From Pseudomonadota bacterium (GTDB lineage: Bacteria > Bdellovibrionota_B > Oligoflexia > Silvanigrellales > Silvanigrellaceae): DNA of 64,000 nt. Below the pieces are notes generated by a model, which was not told the origin of the DNA, did no database searches, and saw nothing but the letters and a program-made list of their open reading frames with translations. Below, piece by piece: positions 7,426 through 15,982 of this stretch; position 1 is the stretch's first letter, and each line of letters begins with the position of its first letter. The stretch is from assembly GCA_039799905.1 (NCBI GenBank), contig JBDLRP010000001.1, forward strand, positions 1 through 64,000, written 5' to 3'. A program made the translations under genes and the position numbers.

Positions 7426-8316
7426 ATGAAATTAGCCGAGCTCTGTACAGCCTTCCCCGAAACTGCGGGCAGCGCCGGCATCCGGCGTCCCGGCTCTGCG
7501 CTTCCGCACGCATTGCAGCTCAAATTGCGCGCGCAGCGCGGACATCTGCAAGCCTCGCTGGACACACATCCACAGCGGAGTGCCAACCGGCTCGGCCTTG
7601 GCCTGCGTCCCTACGAATCGGGCGATTCGCTGCGCGCGGTCGCGTTGCGCCCGTTGCTTCTGCAGGAACAGCTTCTCACGCGCACCGATGTCTCCGCCGG
7701 CCGTTTCCACGTGACCATCATCGTACACAGCTATGCAAATATGAATTTCAGATCTGACCCGCAGGGCCCAAGCAAAAATCAACTGGCTTGGGCAACAGCC
7801 GGAATTCTGCAGAATCTTCACGATCAGCAGGCTCAAAAAGTGGATCTGCTCACACTCGGCGGGGCCGACCTGCCGGCGCAGATGATCCAGCACGCAGCGC
7901 GCATCAGGCGCTCGCATTTTTGTTACGTTATTACAGACCTCCTTTTCAATTCCACCGACCAAAGTGCTGCCGCACGTGAAATTTCTGCTGCTCTTTCAAT
8001 TTTGCACCTTCGCCGCGGGATGGTGCTTGTCATCCGCGACCCACTCGAATCACCAAACCAGCAGCTCGCTGGTGCAGCCCGCGTACTGACGTTTGAACCG
8101 CCACAGGGCGTGAACGGACAAGTCGACGCCGACAAAGGCGATGAAAAGCATTCGGGAGAGGGCTACGTCGCAAATCTTCGTGCACAGCTTGAGAATCTGC
8201 AGCAACAACTGAATAGCTTTGGCTGGAATTCACTTCTCGTGACGGCAAATGATGAAACCGATCACTTTGCGAAACAATTATCGGTGCGCCTGGCCGGTCT
8301 GAGGATTTGCCAATGA
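7426..8316 (+). CDS. DUF58-family protein (divergent)
   Basis: LRPYESGDSLR matches the DUF58 RxYxPGDDxR motif; ITDL and DPLE also present; ATGA overlap with the next gene. Confidence 0.7.
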   Translation: MKLAELCTAFPETAGSAGIRRPGSALPHALQLKLRAQRGHLQASLDTHPQRSANRLGLGLRPYESGDSLRAVALRPLLLQEQLLTRTDVSAGRFHVTIIVHSYANMNFRSDPQGPSKNQLAWATAGILQNLHDQQAQKVDLLTLGGADLPAQMIQHAARIRRSHFCYVITDLLFNSTDQSAAAREISAALSILHLRRGMVLVIRDPLESPNQQLAGAARVLTFEPPQGVNGQVDADKGDEKHSGEGYVANLRAQLENLQQQLNSFGWNSLLVTANDETDHFAKQLSVRLAGLRICQ

Positions 8317-11105
8317 TCACCATCATTCTTTTTTCCAGCCTGGTGTCGCTCGTCACACTTGGAATCATGTTCATCCAACGCATCAGCCCCGAAAAAATTC
8401 GCATTCCGAGTTATTTCCTCGGCGTCGCAGGTCAGCGCAGACTGAGCCAGGTCAGAACAAAGCCACCCTTCTGGTGGGAAGTTCTCGCCTTGCTGCTGTT
8501 CACGGCAGGCGCCGGTCTGGCCTACTTTTCAAAGACACACAACTCGCCGGACGGCACCGCGCAAGGCACTGGTCTGGTTTGGTTTGACCCGACAATCTCC
8601 CACATCAGAACTTTGCGCACGTCGGCCTCCGCGCGTGAATTTGTCGCTGACTCTCTGAGTGATTTGAGGCTTTCCGAGTATGTTTTTATCGAACTGAATT
8701 TTTTGGAGGGAGCCGGTTCAAACTCCAAGTACACCTACCAACTCAAACGCGTTCCTGCGGCCGGAGTCGAAAACTACGTCCGCGCTGCTCTCTCGAATCC
8801 GAGCGTTCTTTCGCAGCCGCTCGACAGCCGTGCACTCCTGCAGACGTTGGAAAAAGAGCTTGGCGGCAATCTCGCCCAGACGACACTCACTCTCGTAACG
8901 GACGCTCAGGCAGAAACAGTCAGGCCTCTTTCACAGCTGAACAGTGCGTTCCGTTCCGTGACACTCATCAAAACTCCTTCTCCTGAAAACAAGAATTCCA
9001 CTGCCCGCAAAACGCCCGTCGTTCCGCTTGAGCTTGCTGCTGCGTGGAGTTCTTTAAGTGAATCTGGTCAAGATTCCGTGTTGGGCAATCCGCAGCTCAT
9101 AAAACTCGACGATTCGCTTGCAGCCAAGATTCCGCGCCAAGCGAGGCCCTCTCTCTACCTTGAGGAAATTGATTACCAAGATGGACAAGGGAGCGCGCAA
9201 CCGCAGCCCTTTGCGATGATTTCCGGTGAAGATACCCACAGCGGTGAAGCACAGAGCGCGGCACGTGCGAACCAGCCACTACTGACAACCTGTACGCTTT
9301 CAGTTGCTGGACCAAGCGAACTGGACGGACTCTCAGATTTGCGCGCCTATGCGCAATTCTTCTCGGTTCCGATTCGTCCGATGGCCTGCCGCTCGACCGA
9401 AAGCTCGCAAAGTTCCAGAGCGGCAGATCAGGGAGACCCTTGGAAATACCGTCGTGCCTCTGTTTGGGTTGTTCCCGTCAGCGAATCTGTCGCAGGCGAT
9501 CTTTTTCAGCAGAGTCTTTTTTGGACGCCTGAAGGCTTCTCGCCGGAACATGATGCTCTTGTTTACATAGCCGACACGCGACTTGCTGGCGTTGAGGAAC
9601 TCATGGAGTCGGTCTCGGTGCAGCTCGAGATCAATCAACCCTCAGTGAGAATTCCGCTCCTGCCGCTGCCTCCTTCGAATCTGACTTTCCCGTGGGAATT
9701 GCAGGCAGGTCAAAAACCAATTCAAACCAAACCCATTGCCCGGACAGATACTTCCGACGCGAAGATACTTTTGAAGGCCGCAGACGGAACTCCGTTGGCG
9801 TTTTCACTTTCACAAAAACCTGCGGTTGTTTACCTACGCACCGGCGGCGCCGCACCCAACGGCGAATTCGGGCGCTGGGGGAAATGGGCTGGTCTTTGGG
9901 CGCTTCTCTCGGCACAACTTCAAAACGTCTCACCCACTCTGACAAAAGTTCATCTCACCGCTCCGCAGGATTGGGCCCGTTGGTTTGAAGAACAAGAACA
10001 GCTGCGCAATCCTCAGCTGCGCTATTTCATCGACGGGCAGAATCTGACGGCGCAAATCATCAGCAATCAGTCGGCGCTCAGACCGGTTCCTGCCCTTTAC
10101 ATTCGTGAACGGGACGACCAAATGTTGCTCTTCGAACCTCCGCCGTCCGAGACGAATTCTGCCATGCTCACAGCATCCGAAATTGAGCAGTTGTTTCCCA
10201 ACCGTCGTGAAGTTGTGAGGCAATCCGATCGCGAGCTCGCGACAGCAAGTCAGATTCAATGGCTTGGCGCTCTCTTGGCGGTGCTGTCGCTCATCGCCCT
10301 GTGGTTTTTGCAAATCCGTCGTGCGCAATCGTCGGCCGCAGCGGCCACACTGCCTCTGATATTATTTTTTTCGGTGGCGTCACTCCTCTGGAGTCAGGAT
10401 TCGCATGCACAGGGTGCCAACCGACGGCCCCCATTTGATTCACGTACCCTGCGTGCAACAGAAAACAGACCAGTCGTCGGTACTTTTCCGTTTCGAATTG
10501 GCTGGTGCGATGCAAGCATTCCTGAACCAGTCAAACAGCGCTATCGCTATCTTCAAAATCTACTTGCAAGCCGTGGAACAATTGATCTTCCAAAAGAACT
10601 CACTGCCGGTGGCTGCAGGCTGGGCGCCGCAGAAATCTGGTGGACCTCGTCACTTGAGGCACTTCAGGCCGCCACTGTGACGCAGCATATTCGCTCTGGT
10701 GGTCTGGTCATCGCCGAAGGAATCTCGTTGCGCCAGCCGCCCGAATGGATGCTCAGCAGCGCTGACACCAGCATTGGCCTGGCCTGGGAGTCGCCCAAGC
10801 GCCGCGGACTCCTCTATCGCAGCTTTTATCTGCTCTCGTCATTTGACGGCTGCACACCAGAACGGACTCTCATTCTGACTTTGCGAAAAAAAGTAAACGC
10901 GCAGGCTCCCATGGGGATCATCACACCTGTGCGCTTTTTGACAAACACAAGTGAGGGCGAGGATTGTTTTGTCGGTGACGACGACTACAGAGGCCGCTCT
11001 TTTGTAAATCTCATGTACGGACTGCTGACGACAGACTACAAGGAAGACCAAATGCAACTTCCCGAAATTCTCAACCGCGTTCGCAATCTCGGGCTTGAAC
11101 CATGA
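8313..11105 (+). CDS. BatA-like N-terminus / vWA-like / C-terminal DUF4159 membrane protein
   Basis: N-terminal TM pair with IPSYFL; C-terminal LYRSFYLL...VNLMYGLLTTDYKEDQ typical of DUF4159. Confidence 0.7.
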   Translation: MITIILFSSLVSLVTLGIMFIQRISPEKIRIPSYFLGVAGQRRLSQVRTKPPFWWEVLALLLFTAGAGLAYFSKTHNSPDGTAQGTGLVWFDPTISHIRTLRTSASAREFVADSLSDLRLSEYVFIELNFLEGAGSNSKYTYQLKRVPAAGVENYVRAALSNPSVLSQPLDSRALLQTLEKELGGNLAQTTLTLVTDAQAETVRPLSQLNSAFRSVTLIKTPSPENKNSTARKTPVVPLELAAAWSSLSESGQDSVLGNPQLIKLDDSLAAKIPRQARPSLYLEEIDYQDGQGSAQPQPFAMISGEDTHSGEAQSAARANQPLLTTCTLSVAGPSELDGLSDLRAYAQFFSVPIRPMACRSTESSQSSRAADQGDPWKYRRASVWVVPVSESVAGDLFQQSLFWTPEGFSPEHDALVYIADTRLAGVEELMESVSVQLEINQPSVRIPLLPLPPSNLTFPWELQAGQKPIQTKPIARTDTSDAKILLKAADGTPLAFSLSQKPAVVYLRTGGAAPNGEFGRWGKWAGLWALLSAQLQNVSPTLTKVHLTAPQDWARWFEEQEQLRNPQLRYFIDGQNLTAQIISNQSALRPVPALYIRERDDQMLLFEPPPSETNSAMLTASEIEQLFPNRREVVRQSDRELATASQIQWLGALLAVLSLIALWFLQIRRAQSSAAAATLPLILFFSVASLLWSQDSHAQGANRRPPFDSRTLRATENRPVVGTFPFRIGWCDASIPEPVKQRYRYLQNLLASRGTIDLPKELTAGGCRLGAAEIWWTSSLEALQAATVTQHIRSGGLVIAEGISLRQPPEWMLSSADTSIGLAWESPKRRGLLYRSFYLLSSFDGCTPERTLILTLRKKVNAQAPMGIITPVRFLTNTSEGEDCFVGDDDYRGRSFVNLMYGLLTTDYKEDQMQLPEILNRVRNLGLEP

Positions 11106-13231
11106 CAACGACCATCGTCCAATATCTGTTGAGAATTTTGCTGGTCGGTCTCGTCGCCCTGCCGCTGATTGTGCCCTTCATCGAGAATTCCGTTGAACGT
11201 CAGCCGCCCAAAACACTGATGGTCTGGGTCGACAGCGCGTTACCTTGGAATGACGCCGCGCAACTGCAGGCAGAACGAAGGCTACGCGACAAACTCTCAC
11301 TCGACACTTCCATCCGCATCAATTTTCGCAAATTCGGTGCGCGCAACCAGACTCCCACACAGGATTTTGAAGAGCTGACAGGACAGCTGTCGGCCAGCGC
11401 AGGCGAGCAGATCATTCTCAGCAACGGAGCATTGTGGGGGCCGGCCGCGCGCAACTTTCAGCGCAGAATGCTCGAACTGGCAAAAAGTCCGTCACGCAAG
11501 ATTGTTGTTATTTCACCGCAGGACCTGCAATTACGCACGGGCCTGCCCGCGCTCGAAAAATTTCTTGCCCTTTCGGAGCTGAGTGCGCCGCAGCTCAATT
11601 TTCTCGGCGAGCCGTCTCAACTCTCTCTCGATATCATCGGCAGGCTAAATCCACAGGAAAGCCAGACGATTGAAGTCGTCATCCGCAGCGGTGAATCGTT
11701 GCTCACCAGCAAAACGGTTACGGTGACTGCCGACGCGTCAGGAATCGTAAACTCGATAGAAAACATTCCAGTACATTTTACCCGCGCACAGCAACAACTT
11801 CTCACAGCGCAGCTGTCTACCGAACTCAGCCCTGTTCCGCTCAACATGGCCAGTACTCCGGTGAGCGTTGTCCATTCGAAATCAACAGTTCTGCACGTTG
11901 GCGTCGGACCCGACTGGAGTCTGCGCAACATACGCACCAAACTCAAATTCTGGCCCAATCTCGATTTGCTCAGCTATTATATCTTGCGTGAAATTTCCGA
12001 CGACTTGTCGATACCCAGCAATCAGCTCTCACTGATTGAATTCCCGGCCGAAAAATTATTCGGCGAACAGCTGCCCAACTTTCATGGTGTGCTGGCGCAG
12101 AATTTTGTATTCGATTCCTACCTCAATCCACAGGACACACAAAACCTGTTCGACTACGTCAGCCTCAACGGCGGGCGGCTGGTCATTCAGGCGGGTCCGC
12201 TGAGTTTTTTGGGCCGAGATTCGAAAATCAAGGAACTGCTTCCCTGCGAGAATGTTCCGGAGTTTGATTTCGACAAGCCGCATGCATGGCGCGTCGGTAA
12301 AAATCGTTTTCTTTCGGAAGCACAGTTTGAATCTGCCGTCGGCCAAATCGTGACCCGGCAAACCGCAATCGGCTGCAAGCCCAAAGACGGCGCGCTTGTT
12401 CTCGCGGAAACCAATGACAACCCTCCCTCGCCGATGATCCTTGCCTACCCCGTCGGCAAGGGGTTGGTAGTCGCATTTCTAGCCGGTGACTGGCACACAT
12501 TCGCGAGTCAATCCGAGGCCGCGACCCCGACGCAGCGCGCGCAACGGGTTTATGCTGTAGATGCGAGCGAAAGATTGTTTCAATGGATGGTTGAATTCTT
12601 GCAAAGGCGTCAAGACAGCGGTCTACGCCCGCCACAGTTTGCGGGCCCGAGAGTCTACCGCAACGACCCACTCCACCTTGTCCGTTCGCGTGGCGGGATG
12701 CCCGAAGACGGCTTGTTGCGGGGAGCAGGCATCGGTTTCAACGGTCTTCTCGGACGACCGCGCTGGATGAGCCAATTAGCTCTGGAATCTGTGGTGTGGG
12801 ACCGCTGGGCATCGGAACAGGTCACTCCGACCGCATTATCCGAGGAAATTGAGACCAACCTGCGGGAGCTGACCCGTGCACCCAATTTTGAAACGGTTGG
12901 TTTGCAATGGCAGCCGCCCGCAGGTGAATCGGTCAAGTCAGTTCAGGCAGATGGTCAGCGCCTGCTTGTGTGGCCAGTCTTCGACGGCACCATGAGGCAG
13001 CGGGAAAACCTGCGAAACCCCGTGTTATTTCCTCAGGAACTGTCCAATATCTCGGCTGATTTCAGTAAATCGTTGGCGCAAACAGAAGAACTCCGCGAAC
13101 AGCGGGTCGTCCCGCTTCTTAACGCGTATCCATGGCTCTTGGCACTTGCGCTTGCGCTTCTTGCGCTTGAGCAACTCATTGGCCGGCTGTTTTTAGTTCA
13201 ACCCGCCGGACGAGTGTCCGGCCGGCAATAA
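11102..13231 (+). CDS. Membrane protein with GATase1-like domain (DUF58/BatA operon partner)
   Basis: VLHVG..P...DLLSYYILR...LSLIEFP..KLF, GGRLV..AGP.SF and GKGLV; TMs at both termini; ATGA coupling. Confidence 0.65.
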   Translation: MTTTIVQYLLRILLVGLVALPLIVPFIENSVERQPPKTLMVWVDSALPWNDAAQLQAERRLRDKLSLDTSIRINFRKFGARNQTPTQDFEELTGQLSASAGEQIILSNGALWGPAARNFQRRMLELAKSPSRKIVVISPQDLQLRTGLPALEKFLALSELSAPQLNFLGEPSQLSLDIIGRLNPQESQTIEVVIRSGESLLTSKTVTVTADASGIVNSIENIPVHFTRAQQQLLTAQLSTELSPVPLNMASTPVSVVHSKSTVLHVGVGPDWSLRNIRTKLKFWPNLDLLSYYILREISDDLSIPSNQLSLIEFPAEKLFGEQLPNFHGVLAQNFVFDSYLNPQDTQNLFDYVSLNGGRLVIQAGPLSFLGRDSKIKELLPCENVPEFDFDKPHAWRVGKNRFLSEAQFESAVGQIVTRQTAIGCKPKDGALVLAETNDNPPSPMILAYPVGKGLVVAFLAGDWHTFASQSEAATPTQRAQRVYAVDASERLFQWMVEFLQRRQDSGLRPPQFAGPRVYRNDPLHLVRSRGGMPEDGLLRGAGIGFNGLLGRPRWMSQLALESVVWDRWASEQVTPTALSEEIETNLRELTRAPNFETVGLQWQPPAGESVKSVQADGQRLLVWPVFDGTMRQRENLRNPVLFPQELSNISADFSKSLAQTEELREQRVVPLLNAYPWLLALALALLALEQLIGRLFLVQPAGRVSGRQ

Positions 13232-13288: not shown

Positions 13289-13322
13289 TCCCGATGATTC
13301 ATTAGCAACAGGGAGTCTGGCT

Positions 13323-13781
13323 ATGACACTTTTTCCCAAAATCCTCGGCAGAGCCAGCGGGAATGATCAAAGCGGCGGTGACGACTCACAGCCCATCAAG
13401 CGCGCCAAACGCATTGAGAGCCACGCGCTCGTCGATGTAAAGACGAGCACTTGGAACCCACTCTCCGTTGCAAGTGCCGTGCTTTTGGACTTGTCATGGC
13501 AGGGTTTCAAAATTGAGTTCGTCAACCCTGTGAAGATCAAACCAGGCTCCAAACTCACCATGACAGTCCCGCTGTCTTCGTTTGGGATTCTTGCTCCGGC
13601 AAAACTGAAGCTGAAGATTCAAGTGAAGTGGTACGACCCGCGGATGCTGCGCGCCGGCGGGATATTCGAGCCCGAAAGCCACGAGCAGGACTATCTAATT
13701 CAGAAAATTATCGACGTTCTGACCCTGCGCGGCTCGCCCGACGATGCTGGTGTCATCAAGAGCACCCCGCGGGCCTCCTGA
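13323..13781 (+). CDS. PilZ domain protein
   Basis: KRAKR and DLSWQG motifs; VKW...GGIF. Confidence 0.8.
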   Translation: MTLFPKILGRASGNDQSGGDDSQPIKRAKRIESHALVDVKTSTWNPLSVASAVLLDLSWQGFKIEFVNPVKIKPGSKLTMTVPLSSFGILAPAKLKLKIQVKWYDPRMLRAGGIFEPESHEQDYLIQKIIDVLTLRGSPDDAGVIKSTPRAS

Positions 13782-13830: not shown

Positions 13831-14535
13831 TTGCCGGAGGTTGTGCGCTTGTCTTATTCCGCTGCACCGATGCCGCCCAGCGGCTCCTGTTTTGTCGATG
13901 CGAACCGGCCCCAATTTCACAAAGTCATCCCGACACAACTGCGTGCGCCACTGCTCGGCTGCCTCGAGTGGCGTGTCGGAAACGCGCAAACAGAACAATT
14001 GATGCAACGGCGTGGCTGGATGCAATCAGTATGCACAACGGTCACGACGCCGGAGCAGATCGGCGGGTTGGACGCAGGCTGCGAGAGAATTTTTATCCCG
14101 GGCGAATTCTCCCGACAGGGCGACGTTCTTGCTGCTGCGGCTGCGTCGGGCAAAACGATATTCCTTGAGCGCGGAGCCTTTCTGGCGCCAAGCGACATGC
14201 TGCGCGCGGTCAGTAAACTTGGTCCTGCCAAAGACAACGTGGTTCTCGTCGAATCAGGTTCGGCCTTTGGATATTCGGACCGCGTGCTCGACCCACGCGC
14301 GCTCGAAGTGCTCGCATCCATCGGCTGCCCGATGGCACTCAACCTGGAAGCTCTGACTCAACCAAGTGGCATGGCATATGCGCACAGACCGCAATGGATA
14401 TCAGATCCAGCCTTTGACACGGCACTGATTCGCACAGCAATCGCATTTGCCGTCCGTTACCTCATTCTTCCCTGCAACCGTGAGCTCAGTCCGCAGGCTG
14501 CGGAGCTCTGGCTTTCTGCACGAAAGGACTACTGA
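13831..14535 (+). CDS. Degenerate KDO8P synthase (KdsA) paralog, probable pseudo-enzyme
   Basis: Aligns with the KdsA core (IPGEFSRQGDVL, SGKTIFLERGAFLAP, VESGSAFGY) but lacks KANRS/T, the KKGQ lysines, the CERG Arg and FDxTH. Start codon uncertain. TGA overlaps the kdsA ATG. Confidence 0.75.
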   Translation: MPEVVRLSYSAAPMPPSGSCFVDANRPQFHKVIPTQLRAPLLGCLEWRVGNAQTEQLMQRRGWMQSVCTTVTTPEQIGGLDAGCERIFIPGEFSRQGDVLAAAAASGKTIFLERGAFLAPSDMLRAVSKLGPAKDNVVLVESGSAFGYSDRVLDPRALEVLASIGCPMALNLEALTQPSGMAYAHRPQWISDPAFDTALIRTAIAFAVRYLILPCNRELSPQAAELWLSARKDY

Positions 14536-15356
14536 TGACATTCAACGGCGGCTGGAATGGAGAAATCCATCCCAAGGCAACTCTCTCGCAACAGCAACTC
14601 ACCGTCATCGCCGGGCCCTGCATGTTCGAGACTCGCGAAATCGGCTTCGAGGTCGCCGCGCAAATGAAAGCGTTGTGCGACGAACTGGGTTTTCAGTATG
14701 TTTTCAAAAGCAGCTACGACAAGGCCAACAGAACAAGCGGCAATACGGCACGCGGCCCTGGCCTTGAAAAAGGCCTGCAGTGGCTCAGTGAAGTACGTGA
14801 ACATTTACACGTGCCGGTCTTGACCGACGTTCACACTCCGGTGCAGGCCGCAGAGGCGGGACGGATCGTCGATATCGTTCAGGTGCCTGCATTTTTGTGC
14901 GATCAGAAAGATCTTCTCAAAGCCTGCGCCGAATCGGGCAAAACAGTGCAAATAAAAAAAGGACAGCACGCAACACCCGAGCAGGTGATTGCCTGTGCCG
15001 ATTACACCGCTGCCTGCGGCAACCCAAAGGTTTTGCTTTGCGAGCGGGGAACGTCGTTTGGCTACAACAACCTTGTCGTTGACTATCGAAACCTCGTGAT
15101 GATGCGGCGCTCTGGATATGCAACTGTTTTTGATGGAACACACGCGGCTCAGCTCCCCGGCGCCGGTTCCGGTCAGTCATCCGGATTGCGTGACATGGTT
15201 CCTGCACTCTGTGCAGCGGCAACTGCCGTGGGCATTCACGCCCTCTTCCTGGAGGTTCACCCGAATCCAGAAAAGGCACTCTCTGATGCCTCGACACAAG
15301 TGAGTTTCGAAACAGCAACGCACATTCTTCGCCGCGTCAAACAGCTGCGCGCTTAA
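14535..15356 (+). CDS. kdsA: 3-deoxy-8-phosphooctulonate synthase, metal-dependent type
   Basis: AGPC, KSSYDKANRTS, TDVH, KKGQ, CERGTSFGY, FDGTH, FLEVHP and SD motifs. Confidence 0.95.
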   Translation: MTFNGGWNGEIHPKATLSQQQLTVIAGPCMFETREIGFEVAAQMKALCDELGFQYVFKSSYDKANRTSGNTARGPGLEKGLQWLSEVREHLHVPVLTDVHTPVQAAEAGRIVDIVQVPAFLCDQKDLLKACAESGKTVQIKKGQHATPEQVIACADYTAACGNPKVLLCERGTSFGYNNLVVDYRNLVMMRRSGYATVFDGTHAAQLPGAGSGQSSGLRDMVPALCAAATAVGIHALFLEVHPNPEKALSDASTQVSFETATHILRRVKQLRA

Positions 15357-15982
15357 TCCTGACCGCAGTTGGGCGGTGGACCCTCGACCCTGCCTGCAAT
15401 TGCGCTCGACGGATTGCCACTTTCAAAACGCTGAAAACTCACGTCCGAACAGCAATTGATGACAACATCGCCAGTTTCACCCCAGCCGCCGCGGGCGTTG
15501 GGAGGAAAATTGTGATCGAAACAGAGAAGTTTGCGCTGACTCAGGAAAGTAATTCCGGCAACCGGATCGACTATTGCATCAGCTGAAATGTTGACAATCG
15601 CCACGCGTCCCTGACGCGAACGCAAAAAAATCTGCTTGTCAGGATCGCCCTTGCAGATTGTAGCCGGATCTCTGTTCAACAAATCCTTGCGTTGTCCAAA
15701 AAACTGAAAGTCGTAGCACTGCGCGGAACTCGCCTCAAAGGAATCATCGGCAGACTTTTTACGGACATCCGGTGCACGGATCAGGTACTTCGGCAACAAA
15801 ACTTCTTCGCTCGATTCCTGCGGCGCCGATGGTCGCAAAACAGCCTGCTTTTCGGCTTCGGCATCCAACCTGGCCATGGCAGCAGCTTCGCTGTCGGAAA
15901 GCTCAGCCGGAACTTTCTTGCCAAACGATGACTGACATCCCGCTACCGTGAGTAGTGGGATAATTAGAAACAATGTCATCAT
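15353..15982 (-). CDS. Hypothetical lipoprotein
   Basis: Lipobox VAGC; several Cys. Confidence 0.65.
   Translation of the reverse strand: MMTLFLIIPLLTVAGCQSSFGKKVPAELSDSEAAAMARLDAEAEKQAVLRPSAPQESSEEVLLPKYLIRAPDVRKKSADDSFEASSAQCYDFQFFGQRKDLLNRDPATICKGDPDKQIFLRSRQGRVAIVNISADAIVDPVAGITFLSQRKLLCFDHNFPPNARGGWGETGDVVINCCSDVSFQRFESGNPSSAIAGRVEGPPPNCGQD

Follow-up and report, generated by a model that had tools for sequence, protein, structure and literature searches.

In trypanosomatids, deoxyhypusine synthase is a heterotetramer of an impaired subunit (DHSc) and a catalytically dead paralog (DHSp), and the resulting activation is reported as 3000-fold (PMC3663545). In Trypanosoma brucei, S-adenosylmethionine decarboxylase (AdoMetDC) is activated by its prozyme allosterically, through relief of autoinhibition, according to PMC5201418, and in the PRMT1 ENZ/PRO pair the dead paralog binds a weakly active enzyme and switches it on, as bioRxiv 10.1101/776112 has it. 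The fixation of heteromers after duplication of a homomer gene, by complementary degeneration and constructive neutral evolution, is the general topic of PMC11066126. We describe here a bacterial gene pair that can be compared with these systems. It lies in a stretch of 64,000 nucleotides (the window) from a member of the Silvanigrellaceae (contig JBDLRP010000001.1, positions 1 to 64,000) and consists of a catalytically dead paralog of KdsA (gene A) directly 5' of kdsA itself (gene B), which encodes KDO8P synthase (KDO8P, the 8-phosphate of 3-deoxy-D-manno-octulosonate). Canonical KdsA is a homotetramer whose subunits, besides being catalytic themselves, each provide a neighbour with the Arg of the PAFLxR motif, and the enzyme is regarded as an antibiotic target. 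We take this Arg (Arg106 in Aquifex aeolicus, Arg117 in Neisseria meningitidis; also Phe114) to reach across the interface to the arabinose 5-phosphate (A5P) phosphate bound by the neighbouring subunit. The two genes are a real, conserved pseudoenzyme-enzyme pair, and we lean slightly towards a reading of their sequences in which A and B form an obligate mixed oligomer, with Arg89 and Phe111 of A filling the substrate site of B.

Two KdsA-type open reading frames (ORFs) were confirmed on the + strand, at 13831-14535 (234 amino acids from a TTG; gene A) and at 14535-15356 (273 amino acids; gene B). By profile scores, alignments, and motifs, gene B (14535..15356) encodes a metal-type KDO8P synthase. 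It matched the KdsA equivalog NF003543 over its full length with 332.5 bits (cut-off 242) and the DAHP_synth_1 family (PF00793) with 199.7 bits (cut-off 25.5); with TIGR01362 it scored 314.9 bits, barely above the cut-off of 314. From end to end, the protein shares 42-50% identity with KdsAs of solved structure (e.g., PDB 1FWN, 2QKF, 6MDY, and 3FS2), and it retains the motifs AGPC, KANRTS, LTDVH, KKGQ, CERG, FDGTH, EVH, and SD together with the metal-type Cys/His/Glu/Asp set. The motifs that we assume to make up the in-cis catalytic and metal sites of a KDO8P synthase agree with the columns that are invariant in 22 paired KdsAs, i.e., those encoded beside an A-type gene (C29, K63, N65, R66, D98, H100, K141, K142, R171, H203, E240, and D251). 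In the source genome (3.38 Mb, 93.8% complete), A and B are the only members of the DAHP_synth_1 family, and WaaA, KdsB-like, and KdsD/KpsF homologs are encoded as well. These homologs indicate that Kdo is made, and B, as the sole full family member, is the only candidate for the synthase. Judging from its motifs, B would convert phosphoenolpyruvate and arabinose 5-phosphate into KDO8P.

B keeps every in-cis motif and yet departs from the family at two interface positions, as the first-pass annotation of this DNA had pointed out. Where the aligned solved KdsAs read PAFLCRQ and KKGQFLAP, B reads PAFLCDQ and KKGQHATP, and a residue test for KDO8P synthases accordingly found neither the Arg of PAFLxR nor the Phe of KKGQF. 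The replacing residues are Asp123 (GAT, 14901..14903, + strand) and His145 (CAC, 14967..14969, + strand).

Gene A (13849..14535, + strand; 228 amino acids from the TTG at 13849) showed the converse. Its match with NF003543 was partial, covering profile positions 90-233 of 273 with 67.4 bits (cut-off 242), and with PF00793 it scored 15.6 bits, under the 25.5 cut-off; aligned with B, it is 30% identical over 100 residues (E 3e-11). The catalytic and metal motifs are gone: KANRS, EVH, and SD are absent, LTDVH has become CTTVTT, KKGQ has become LERG, CERG has become VESG, and FDGTH has become LNLEA, and the Cys aligned to that of AGPC is kept in the genus of the source organism only. Kept in A are Arg89 (CGA, 14113..14115, + strand; numbered from 13849), which lies in PGEFSRQ and is homologous to the PAFLxR Arg, and Phe111 (TTC, 14179..14181, + strand), which lies in ERGAFLAP and is homologous to the KKGQF Phe. 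The alignment thus bears out the earlier claim that A has lost its catalytic motifs but keeps the Arg of PGEFSRQ and the Phe of GAFLAP. In NCBI records, A is annotated as 'hypothetical protein' or, wrongly, as 'KDO 8-P synthase'.

The reciprocal pattern extends well beyond the source genome. We compared the KdsA region from 54 unpaired genomes of the phylum with that from 33 paired genomes. Unpaired KdsAs read P-A-F-L-C-R-Q-T-D in 54/54 cases, without a single exception at R, Q, T, or D. At the PAFLxR position of the 33 paired genomes, we found D in 13 (the whole source genus), K in 10, E in 6, and L, N, Q, and R in one each, and the sole genome with Arg was one in which the two genes are fused. 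In the 30 distinct paired sequences (D13, K9, E5, L1, N1, Q1 at this position), the preceding P-A-F-L stays invariant. The position of the KKGQF Phe follows suit, with H in 19, W in 10, and F in one of the paired sequences versus F in 50 and M in 4 of the unpaired ones. Conversely, in the 29 A sequences and A domains of fused proteins, the Arg, Gln, and Asp of the motif as well as E107, G109, and F111 are each present 29/29 times, and the PAF part has changed to P-G-E/D. The two proteins thus divide the interface motif among themselves, P-A-F-L being retained in B, and R-Q-x-D and F-L-x-P in A. Further positions that are conserved in unpaired KdsAs are altered in paired ones (101, 139, 169, 178, 184, and 196), and these fall mostly within the beta3-beta7 stretch.

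The PAFLxR Arg was present in 142 of 150 representatives drawn from diverse KdsA clusters. The eight without it include one Silvanigrellaceae-like sequence and one fusion protein; the other six carry Met (P0066 and P0123), Lys (P0077 and P0126), His (P0081), or Glu (P0120), and in P0081 and P0120 the KKGQF Phe is missing too. In these six, an arrangement like that of A and B may have arisen independently. P0120 was scanned against metagenomes, where it gave no match. Where the paralog is missing, a kdsA without the Arg did not prove to be common, since all 54 unpaired genomes have the Arg and only 1 of the 33 paired ones does. The change from Arg to Asp put forward in the first-pass annotation is specific to the source genus; other genera have K, E, L, N, or Q instead, and Arg has been retained in the fused clade.

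The distribution of gene A was investigated with A itself as a query and with a profile (A1) built from 23 A sequences. With the single sequence, a match was found in 24/24 other genomes of the same family and in one genome of a sister family, and in nearly all of these the A-type match lay directly upstream of a KdsA-type match. In a scan of 131 genomes from the phylum, profile A1 gave A-type matches with 116-322 bits in 31/32 genomes of family f1 and in the single genome of family f2. In the f1 genome without such a match (G012), kdsA is cut by the contig start. The remaining 98 genomes yielded no A-type gene; in them, the profile picked up the organism's own KdsA with at most 84 bits or nothing. 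A dead KdsA copy stands directly 5' of kdsA throughout the checkable Silvanigrellales genomes. Cultured species carry the pair too: records named Silvanigrella aquatica and Pigmentibacter ruber match two of the paired KdsAs without a difference in sequence, and a third paired KdsA closely resembles that of Fluviispira multicolorata.

A tree was inferred from a sample of 17 of the 23 A sequences, 15 of the 22 B sequences, 18 of the 54 unpaired KdsAs, and 25 representatives. The A sequences sit apart from all catalytic KdsAs on a branch of 2.9 changes per column that joins an unresolved polytomy, so that the tree does not distinguish a duplication within the lineage from a transfer from outside. 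Matching sub-clades were recovered in the A and B trees, namely, a genus clade, L022 with L023, and the group L017/L018/L019. The pair probably originated by duplication followed by complementary degeneration.

Gene A is evidently maintained by selection. Across relatives, the 23 A sequences are 26-93% identical to the source copy and share 13 invariant columns (G85, R89, Q90, D92, L94, E107, G109, F111, D116, G137, G141, D148, and R150), all of which fall within the segment homologous to KdsA strands beta4-beta6. Ratios of nonsynonymous to synonymous substitution rates (dN/dS) were estimated by the Nei-Gojobori method; 3 of the 22 printed genus pairs were usable (dS <1.4 in A), the rest being saturated (dS >2 or undefined). 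For these three pairs, dN/dS was 0.060, 0.093, and 0.074 in A and 0.045, 0.042, and 0.034 in B. Such low values indicate that A is under purifying selection, with a nonsynonymous rate about twice that of B. A is thus neither unconserved across the order nor evolving neutrally (dN/dS 0.06-0.09), and it is a paralog without catalytic residues and yet under selection, as expected of a prozyme-type protein. An in-frame stop was seen in only one of 33 strong A-type genome matches, a single TGA in G009 (L015, C363:11715-12404; genome 70% complete). Both the profile match and the ORF start after this TGA and contain no stop, and the TGA is probably an upstream stop rather than a break in the gene.

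The two genes are also tightly coupled, as had been claimed from the TGATG at 14533-14537. In this stop/start overlap (14533..14537, + strand), which would allow translational coupling, the TGA of A (14533-14535) shares a nucleotide with the ATG of B (14535-14537). A Shine-Dalgarno-like AAGGA for kdsA lies within the 3' end of gene A (14524..14528, + strand), and AAGGA- or AGGAA-like motifs precede the junction in relatives. We corrected the start of gene A from the TTG at 13831 to the one at 13849, which is likelier because it stands 8 nucleotides after a GGAGG Shine-Dalgarno sequence (13836..13840, + strand), because a GGAG(G) or GAGG stands shortly 5' of the likely start in relatives, and because database homologs are mostly 228-231 amino acids long. 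Of 24 A-B junctions, 18 have an ATG between -5 and +5 nucleotides of the A stop (ATGA, TGATG, and TAATG types); in four others the first ATG follows 11-27 nucleotides past the stop, and in L027 and L028 no start lies close behind it. The arrangement is broken up in genome G123, where an IscB-like gene (L132:1602-2888, - strand), encoding a protein of 428 amino acids with RRXRR (PF14239, 230.9 bits) and HNH domains, lies between the pseudo-KdsA gene (L132:3175-3885) and kdsA (L132:601-1437). Both flanking genes are intact; a mobile element broke the coupling there, and neither partner was lost. Evidence for expression is negligible: one RNA-library contig of run X17 (depth 2.4), for which DNA carry-over is possible, spans 13851-14064 in gene A, and no RNA-library contigs were found over gene B. 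A scan for promoters and terminators gave counts no higher than in shuffled sequence.

In one clade, A and B are joined in a single polypeptide. Genome G021 has a single ORF of 495 amino acids that runs from A into B, and five clusters of such fusions were found at 90% identity (P0036, 490 amino acids; P0186, 491; P0187, 482; P0188, 495; P0047, 568), coming from separate contigs and sources. By their B domains, these fusions make up a single clade (Shimodaira-Hasegawa-like approximate likelihood-ratio test [SH-aLRT] support 96) and have diverged down to 51% identity. P0047 differs from the other four in its linker (approximately residues 255-285), which is low in complexity and repeat-like (SQDN-type units) where theirs is short. 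We considered it as a second fusion event and rejected the idea, since the B-domain tree groups all five with the support just given; a single fusion event therefore suffices. All five fusions retain the R-Q-x-D and F-L/V-S-P motifs in the A domain. At the PAFLxR position of the B domain, four have Arg and P0047 has Thr. A homologue search with A among longer proteins had returned no fusion, which was a failure of sensitivity, as these fusions exist. A combined alignment of fusions, A, and B sequences (A3) was discarded because MAFFT placed A on the B half (invariant G390, G394, and D401).

Structure prediction with AlphaFold2 gave gene A a confident model (mean predicted local distance difference test [pLDDT] score 86.3, predicted template modeling [pTM] score 0.86) with eight strands. 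The N-terminal third is remodelled, with no helix before residue 68 and a pLDDT of 53-66 at residues 41-60. The best Foldseek matches listed for this model were all KDO8P synthases (probability 1.00, E of 9e-12 and up, TM 0.57-0.66), and on the model A has the KDO8P synthase-type (beta/alpha)8 fold. We also folded the fusion P0036 (490 residues), using an alignment of fusions and A sequences (A5) in which the B half is five sequences deep, and obtained a pLDDT of 84.5 and a pTM of 0.84, with values of <50 confined to the linker (209-218) and the first five residues. A pTM of 0.84 for a two-domain chain indicates that the A:B domain pair is confidently placed; these confidence scores bear on the placement of the domains and not on which interface is used or on the direction of the Arg. 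Among PDB entry titles, we found mutant structures of A. aeolicus KdsA (R106G) and of N. meningitidis KdsA (R117K, F114A, F114R, and F114R/R117A), confirming that the homologous residues have been mutagenesis targets. The available passages of PMC3052366 mention neither R106 nor a neighbouring subunit.

Taken as a mechanism, the favoured reading runs as follows. A and B would associate through the contact surface that, in the homotetramers of ordinary KdsA, is symmetric. A would insert Arg89 to the A5P phosphate in the site of B and pack Phe111 there, and B would do the chemistry; B alone would be poorly active. In an A:B interface, the Arg of B itself would point into the dead site of A, which would explain why this position drifts in B (D, E, K, L, N, or Q) while the Arg of A is frozen. 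A contact between the Glu that replaces a Phe in A and the His that replaces a Phe in B, also proposed in the first-pass annotation, is only weakly consistent with the sequences, and no evidence emerged for the control point in LPS synthesis that it had suggested. The heteromer itself, which that annotation had deduced from this one locus, gains from the comparative tests on conservation, on the association of Arg loss with the paralog, on selection, on coupling, and on fusions, and is overall partly supported. Evenly balanced, in our judgement, is the wider proposition that KDO8P synthase, an essential LPS enzyme, is an obligate asymmetric heteromer in the whole order, half of its subunits being dead barrels kept only to lend an Arg and a Phe, which was locked in by complementary degeneration after duplication and in one clade later became one polypeptide. 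No prozyme-type enzyme would then have preceded it in the KDO8P synthase/DAH7PS superfamily or in lipopolysaccharide biosynthesis.

Several observations weigh against an obligate mixed oligomer. The geometry that brings the Arg into the active site is taken from the earlier literature, and the confident packing of A against B may partly reflect the KdsA homotetramers in the AlphaFold2 training set. Since the pair goes back to one ancestral event, the contrast between 54 unpaired and 33 paired genomes is phylogenetically single, and its counts are not independent. The Arg kept in four closely related fusions indicates that its loss is not needed for the partnership, and the insertion in G123 indicates that tight coupling is dispensable in that genome. 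Lys at the PAFLxR position in ten paired genomes is a possible partial substitute for the Arg. Finally, a basic residue has been gained two positions downstream of the lost Arg, at Lys125 in the source genome (AAA, 14907..14909, + strand): the 30 distinct paired sequences have R in 14, K in 13, and V, E, and P in one each, versus Thr in 54/54 unpaired ones. This residue could be a relocated basic residue, which might make B self-sufficient, or a new contact with the partner.

These last observations lead to the alternative that we rank second, in which A is a non-catalytic structural or regulatory subunit that tunes stability, stoichiometry, or regulation, and B suffices for itself by means of Lys123 or Lys/Arg125. 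The gain of K or R at 125 in 27/30 paired sequences, the Lys123 of ten paired genomes, and the Arg kept by the fused clade all fit this alternative, and coupling and fusions fit it equally well. It has to contend, however, with three paired KdsAs that have no basic residue at either position (D at 123 and V at 125 in L014, E and E in L024, N and P in L027). A shift of two residues along a helix would, moreover, turn the side chain in a different direction. Further, the Arg, Gln, and Asp of A are present 29/29 times under strong purifying selection, which suggests a specific role that needs exactly the trans-acting motif. On account of the three KdsAs and the invariant motif, we regard a self-sufficient B as possible but rather doubtful.

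A third explanation, that A has taken on an unrelated function, its stripped barrel now serving to bind a ligand or to catalyse a new reaction, for example, and stays beside kdsA without any complex as a legacy of the duplication, appears quite improbable. The very long branch of A (2.9 changes per column), its remodelled N-terminal third, and the lack of any library family that names it are as this explanation would have them, but what is conserved in A occurs only in the counterpart of KdsA beta4-beta6, in which the neighbour-reaching motif lies, and reveals no new pocket. In addition, the complementary changes in B, the retention of the stop/start overlap, and the fixation of the fused form argue for a joint function. 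The view that A is a chance ORF or a pseudogene in decay, as its scores under the family cut-offs and its 'hypothetical protein' records might suggest, is already refuted by an intact gene across the order at 26-93% identity, with dN/dS of 0.06-0.09, 13 invariant columns, a confident fold, and an in-frame stop in only 1 of 33 strong matches.

The surroundings of the pair in the window were inspected as well. Just 5' of gene A lies an ORF of 152 amino acids (13323-13781, + strand) with no Pfam match, and RNA-library contigs from two runs of one study cover its 5' half (13317-13543). The locus is preceded by two ORFs of 932 and 709 amino acids (8307-11105 and 11102-13231, + strand) that overlap by 4 nucleotides; they match no Pfam family significantly, and sub-threshold DUF4131 and MauE matches fall on a membrane segment. 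On the 3' side, a convergent ORF of 209 amino acids (15353-15982, - strand) with a lipoprotein-like N terminus and no Pfam match overlaps the last codons of kdsA (15353 versus 15356). Farther on, a trypsin-like peptidase gene (PF13365; 16755-17651, + strand) adjoins that of a cation-efflux protein (PF01545; 17642-18640, - strand) with a His-rich HGHDHSHGHDHSHG loop.

No heteromeric KDO8P synthase was found in the literature on kdsA or KDO8P in connection with pseudoenzymes, prozymes, heterotetramers, or Silvanigrella. If A and B do form an obligate mixed oligomer, theirs would be the first such complex for the KdsA enzyme family, and a natural experiment on how the Arg and Phe shared between subunits contribute to catalysis. 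The prozymes would gain a bacterial case encoded in an operon, whereas the examples that we found in the literature are all trypanosomatid, and the complex would present a transition from homomer to heteromer with all stages extant, i.e., unpaired, paired, paired with an insertion, and fused. The annotation of A would be corrected too. With Silvanigrella aquatica and Pigmentibacter ruber as cultured carriers, the biochemistry is straightforward.

The nearest known system is the deoxyhypusine synthase of trypanosomatids. An enzyme that is a homotetramer elsewhere has been replaced there by an impaired and a dead paralog, both of which are needed, and A and B show complementary sequence losses of the same kind. 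The two systems differ in that deoxyhypusine synthase is eukaryotic, has unlinked genes, and has another fold and chemistry, whereas A and B belong to a bacterial operon, are coupled, and are fused in one clade. B, moreover, has retained all of its in-cis catalytic residues and is short only of those lent across the interface in ordinary KdsA, and its activation by A is a prediction. The AdoMetDC/prozyme and PRMT1 ENZ/PRO pairs likewise partner a dead paralog with an enzyme; both are eukaryotic, and the former is allosteric, with no active-site residue donated. With canonical KdsA, B shares the metal-type residue set and A shares the fold, but catalysis and the lending of the Arg, united there in each subunit, would here be split between two products. 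The locus also resembles the outcomes of constructive neutral evolution, in that the gene of a homomer was probably duplicated, the copies would have become mutually dependent, and the former Arg position of B drifts; it differs in that it is a concrete example from nature, belongs to a pathway of the cell envelope, and has one copy that is entirely dead. Thus, the prozyme-type kind of system is already known, and what is new here is a bacterial, operon-coupled or fused pair on the KDO8P synthase/DAH7PS fold in which one interface motif has been partitioned cleanly between two paralogs.

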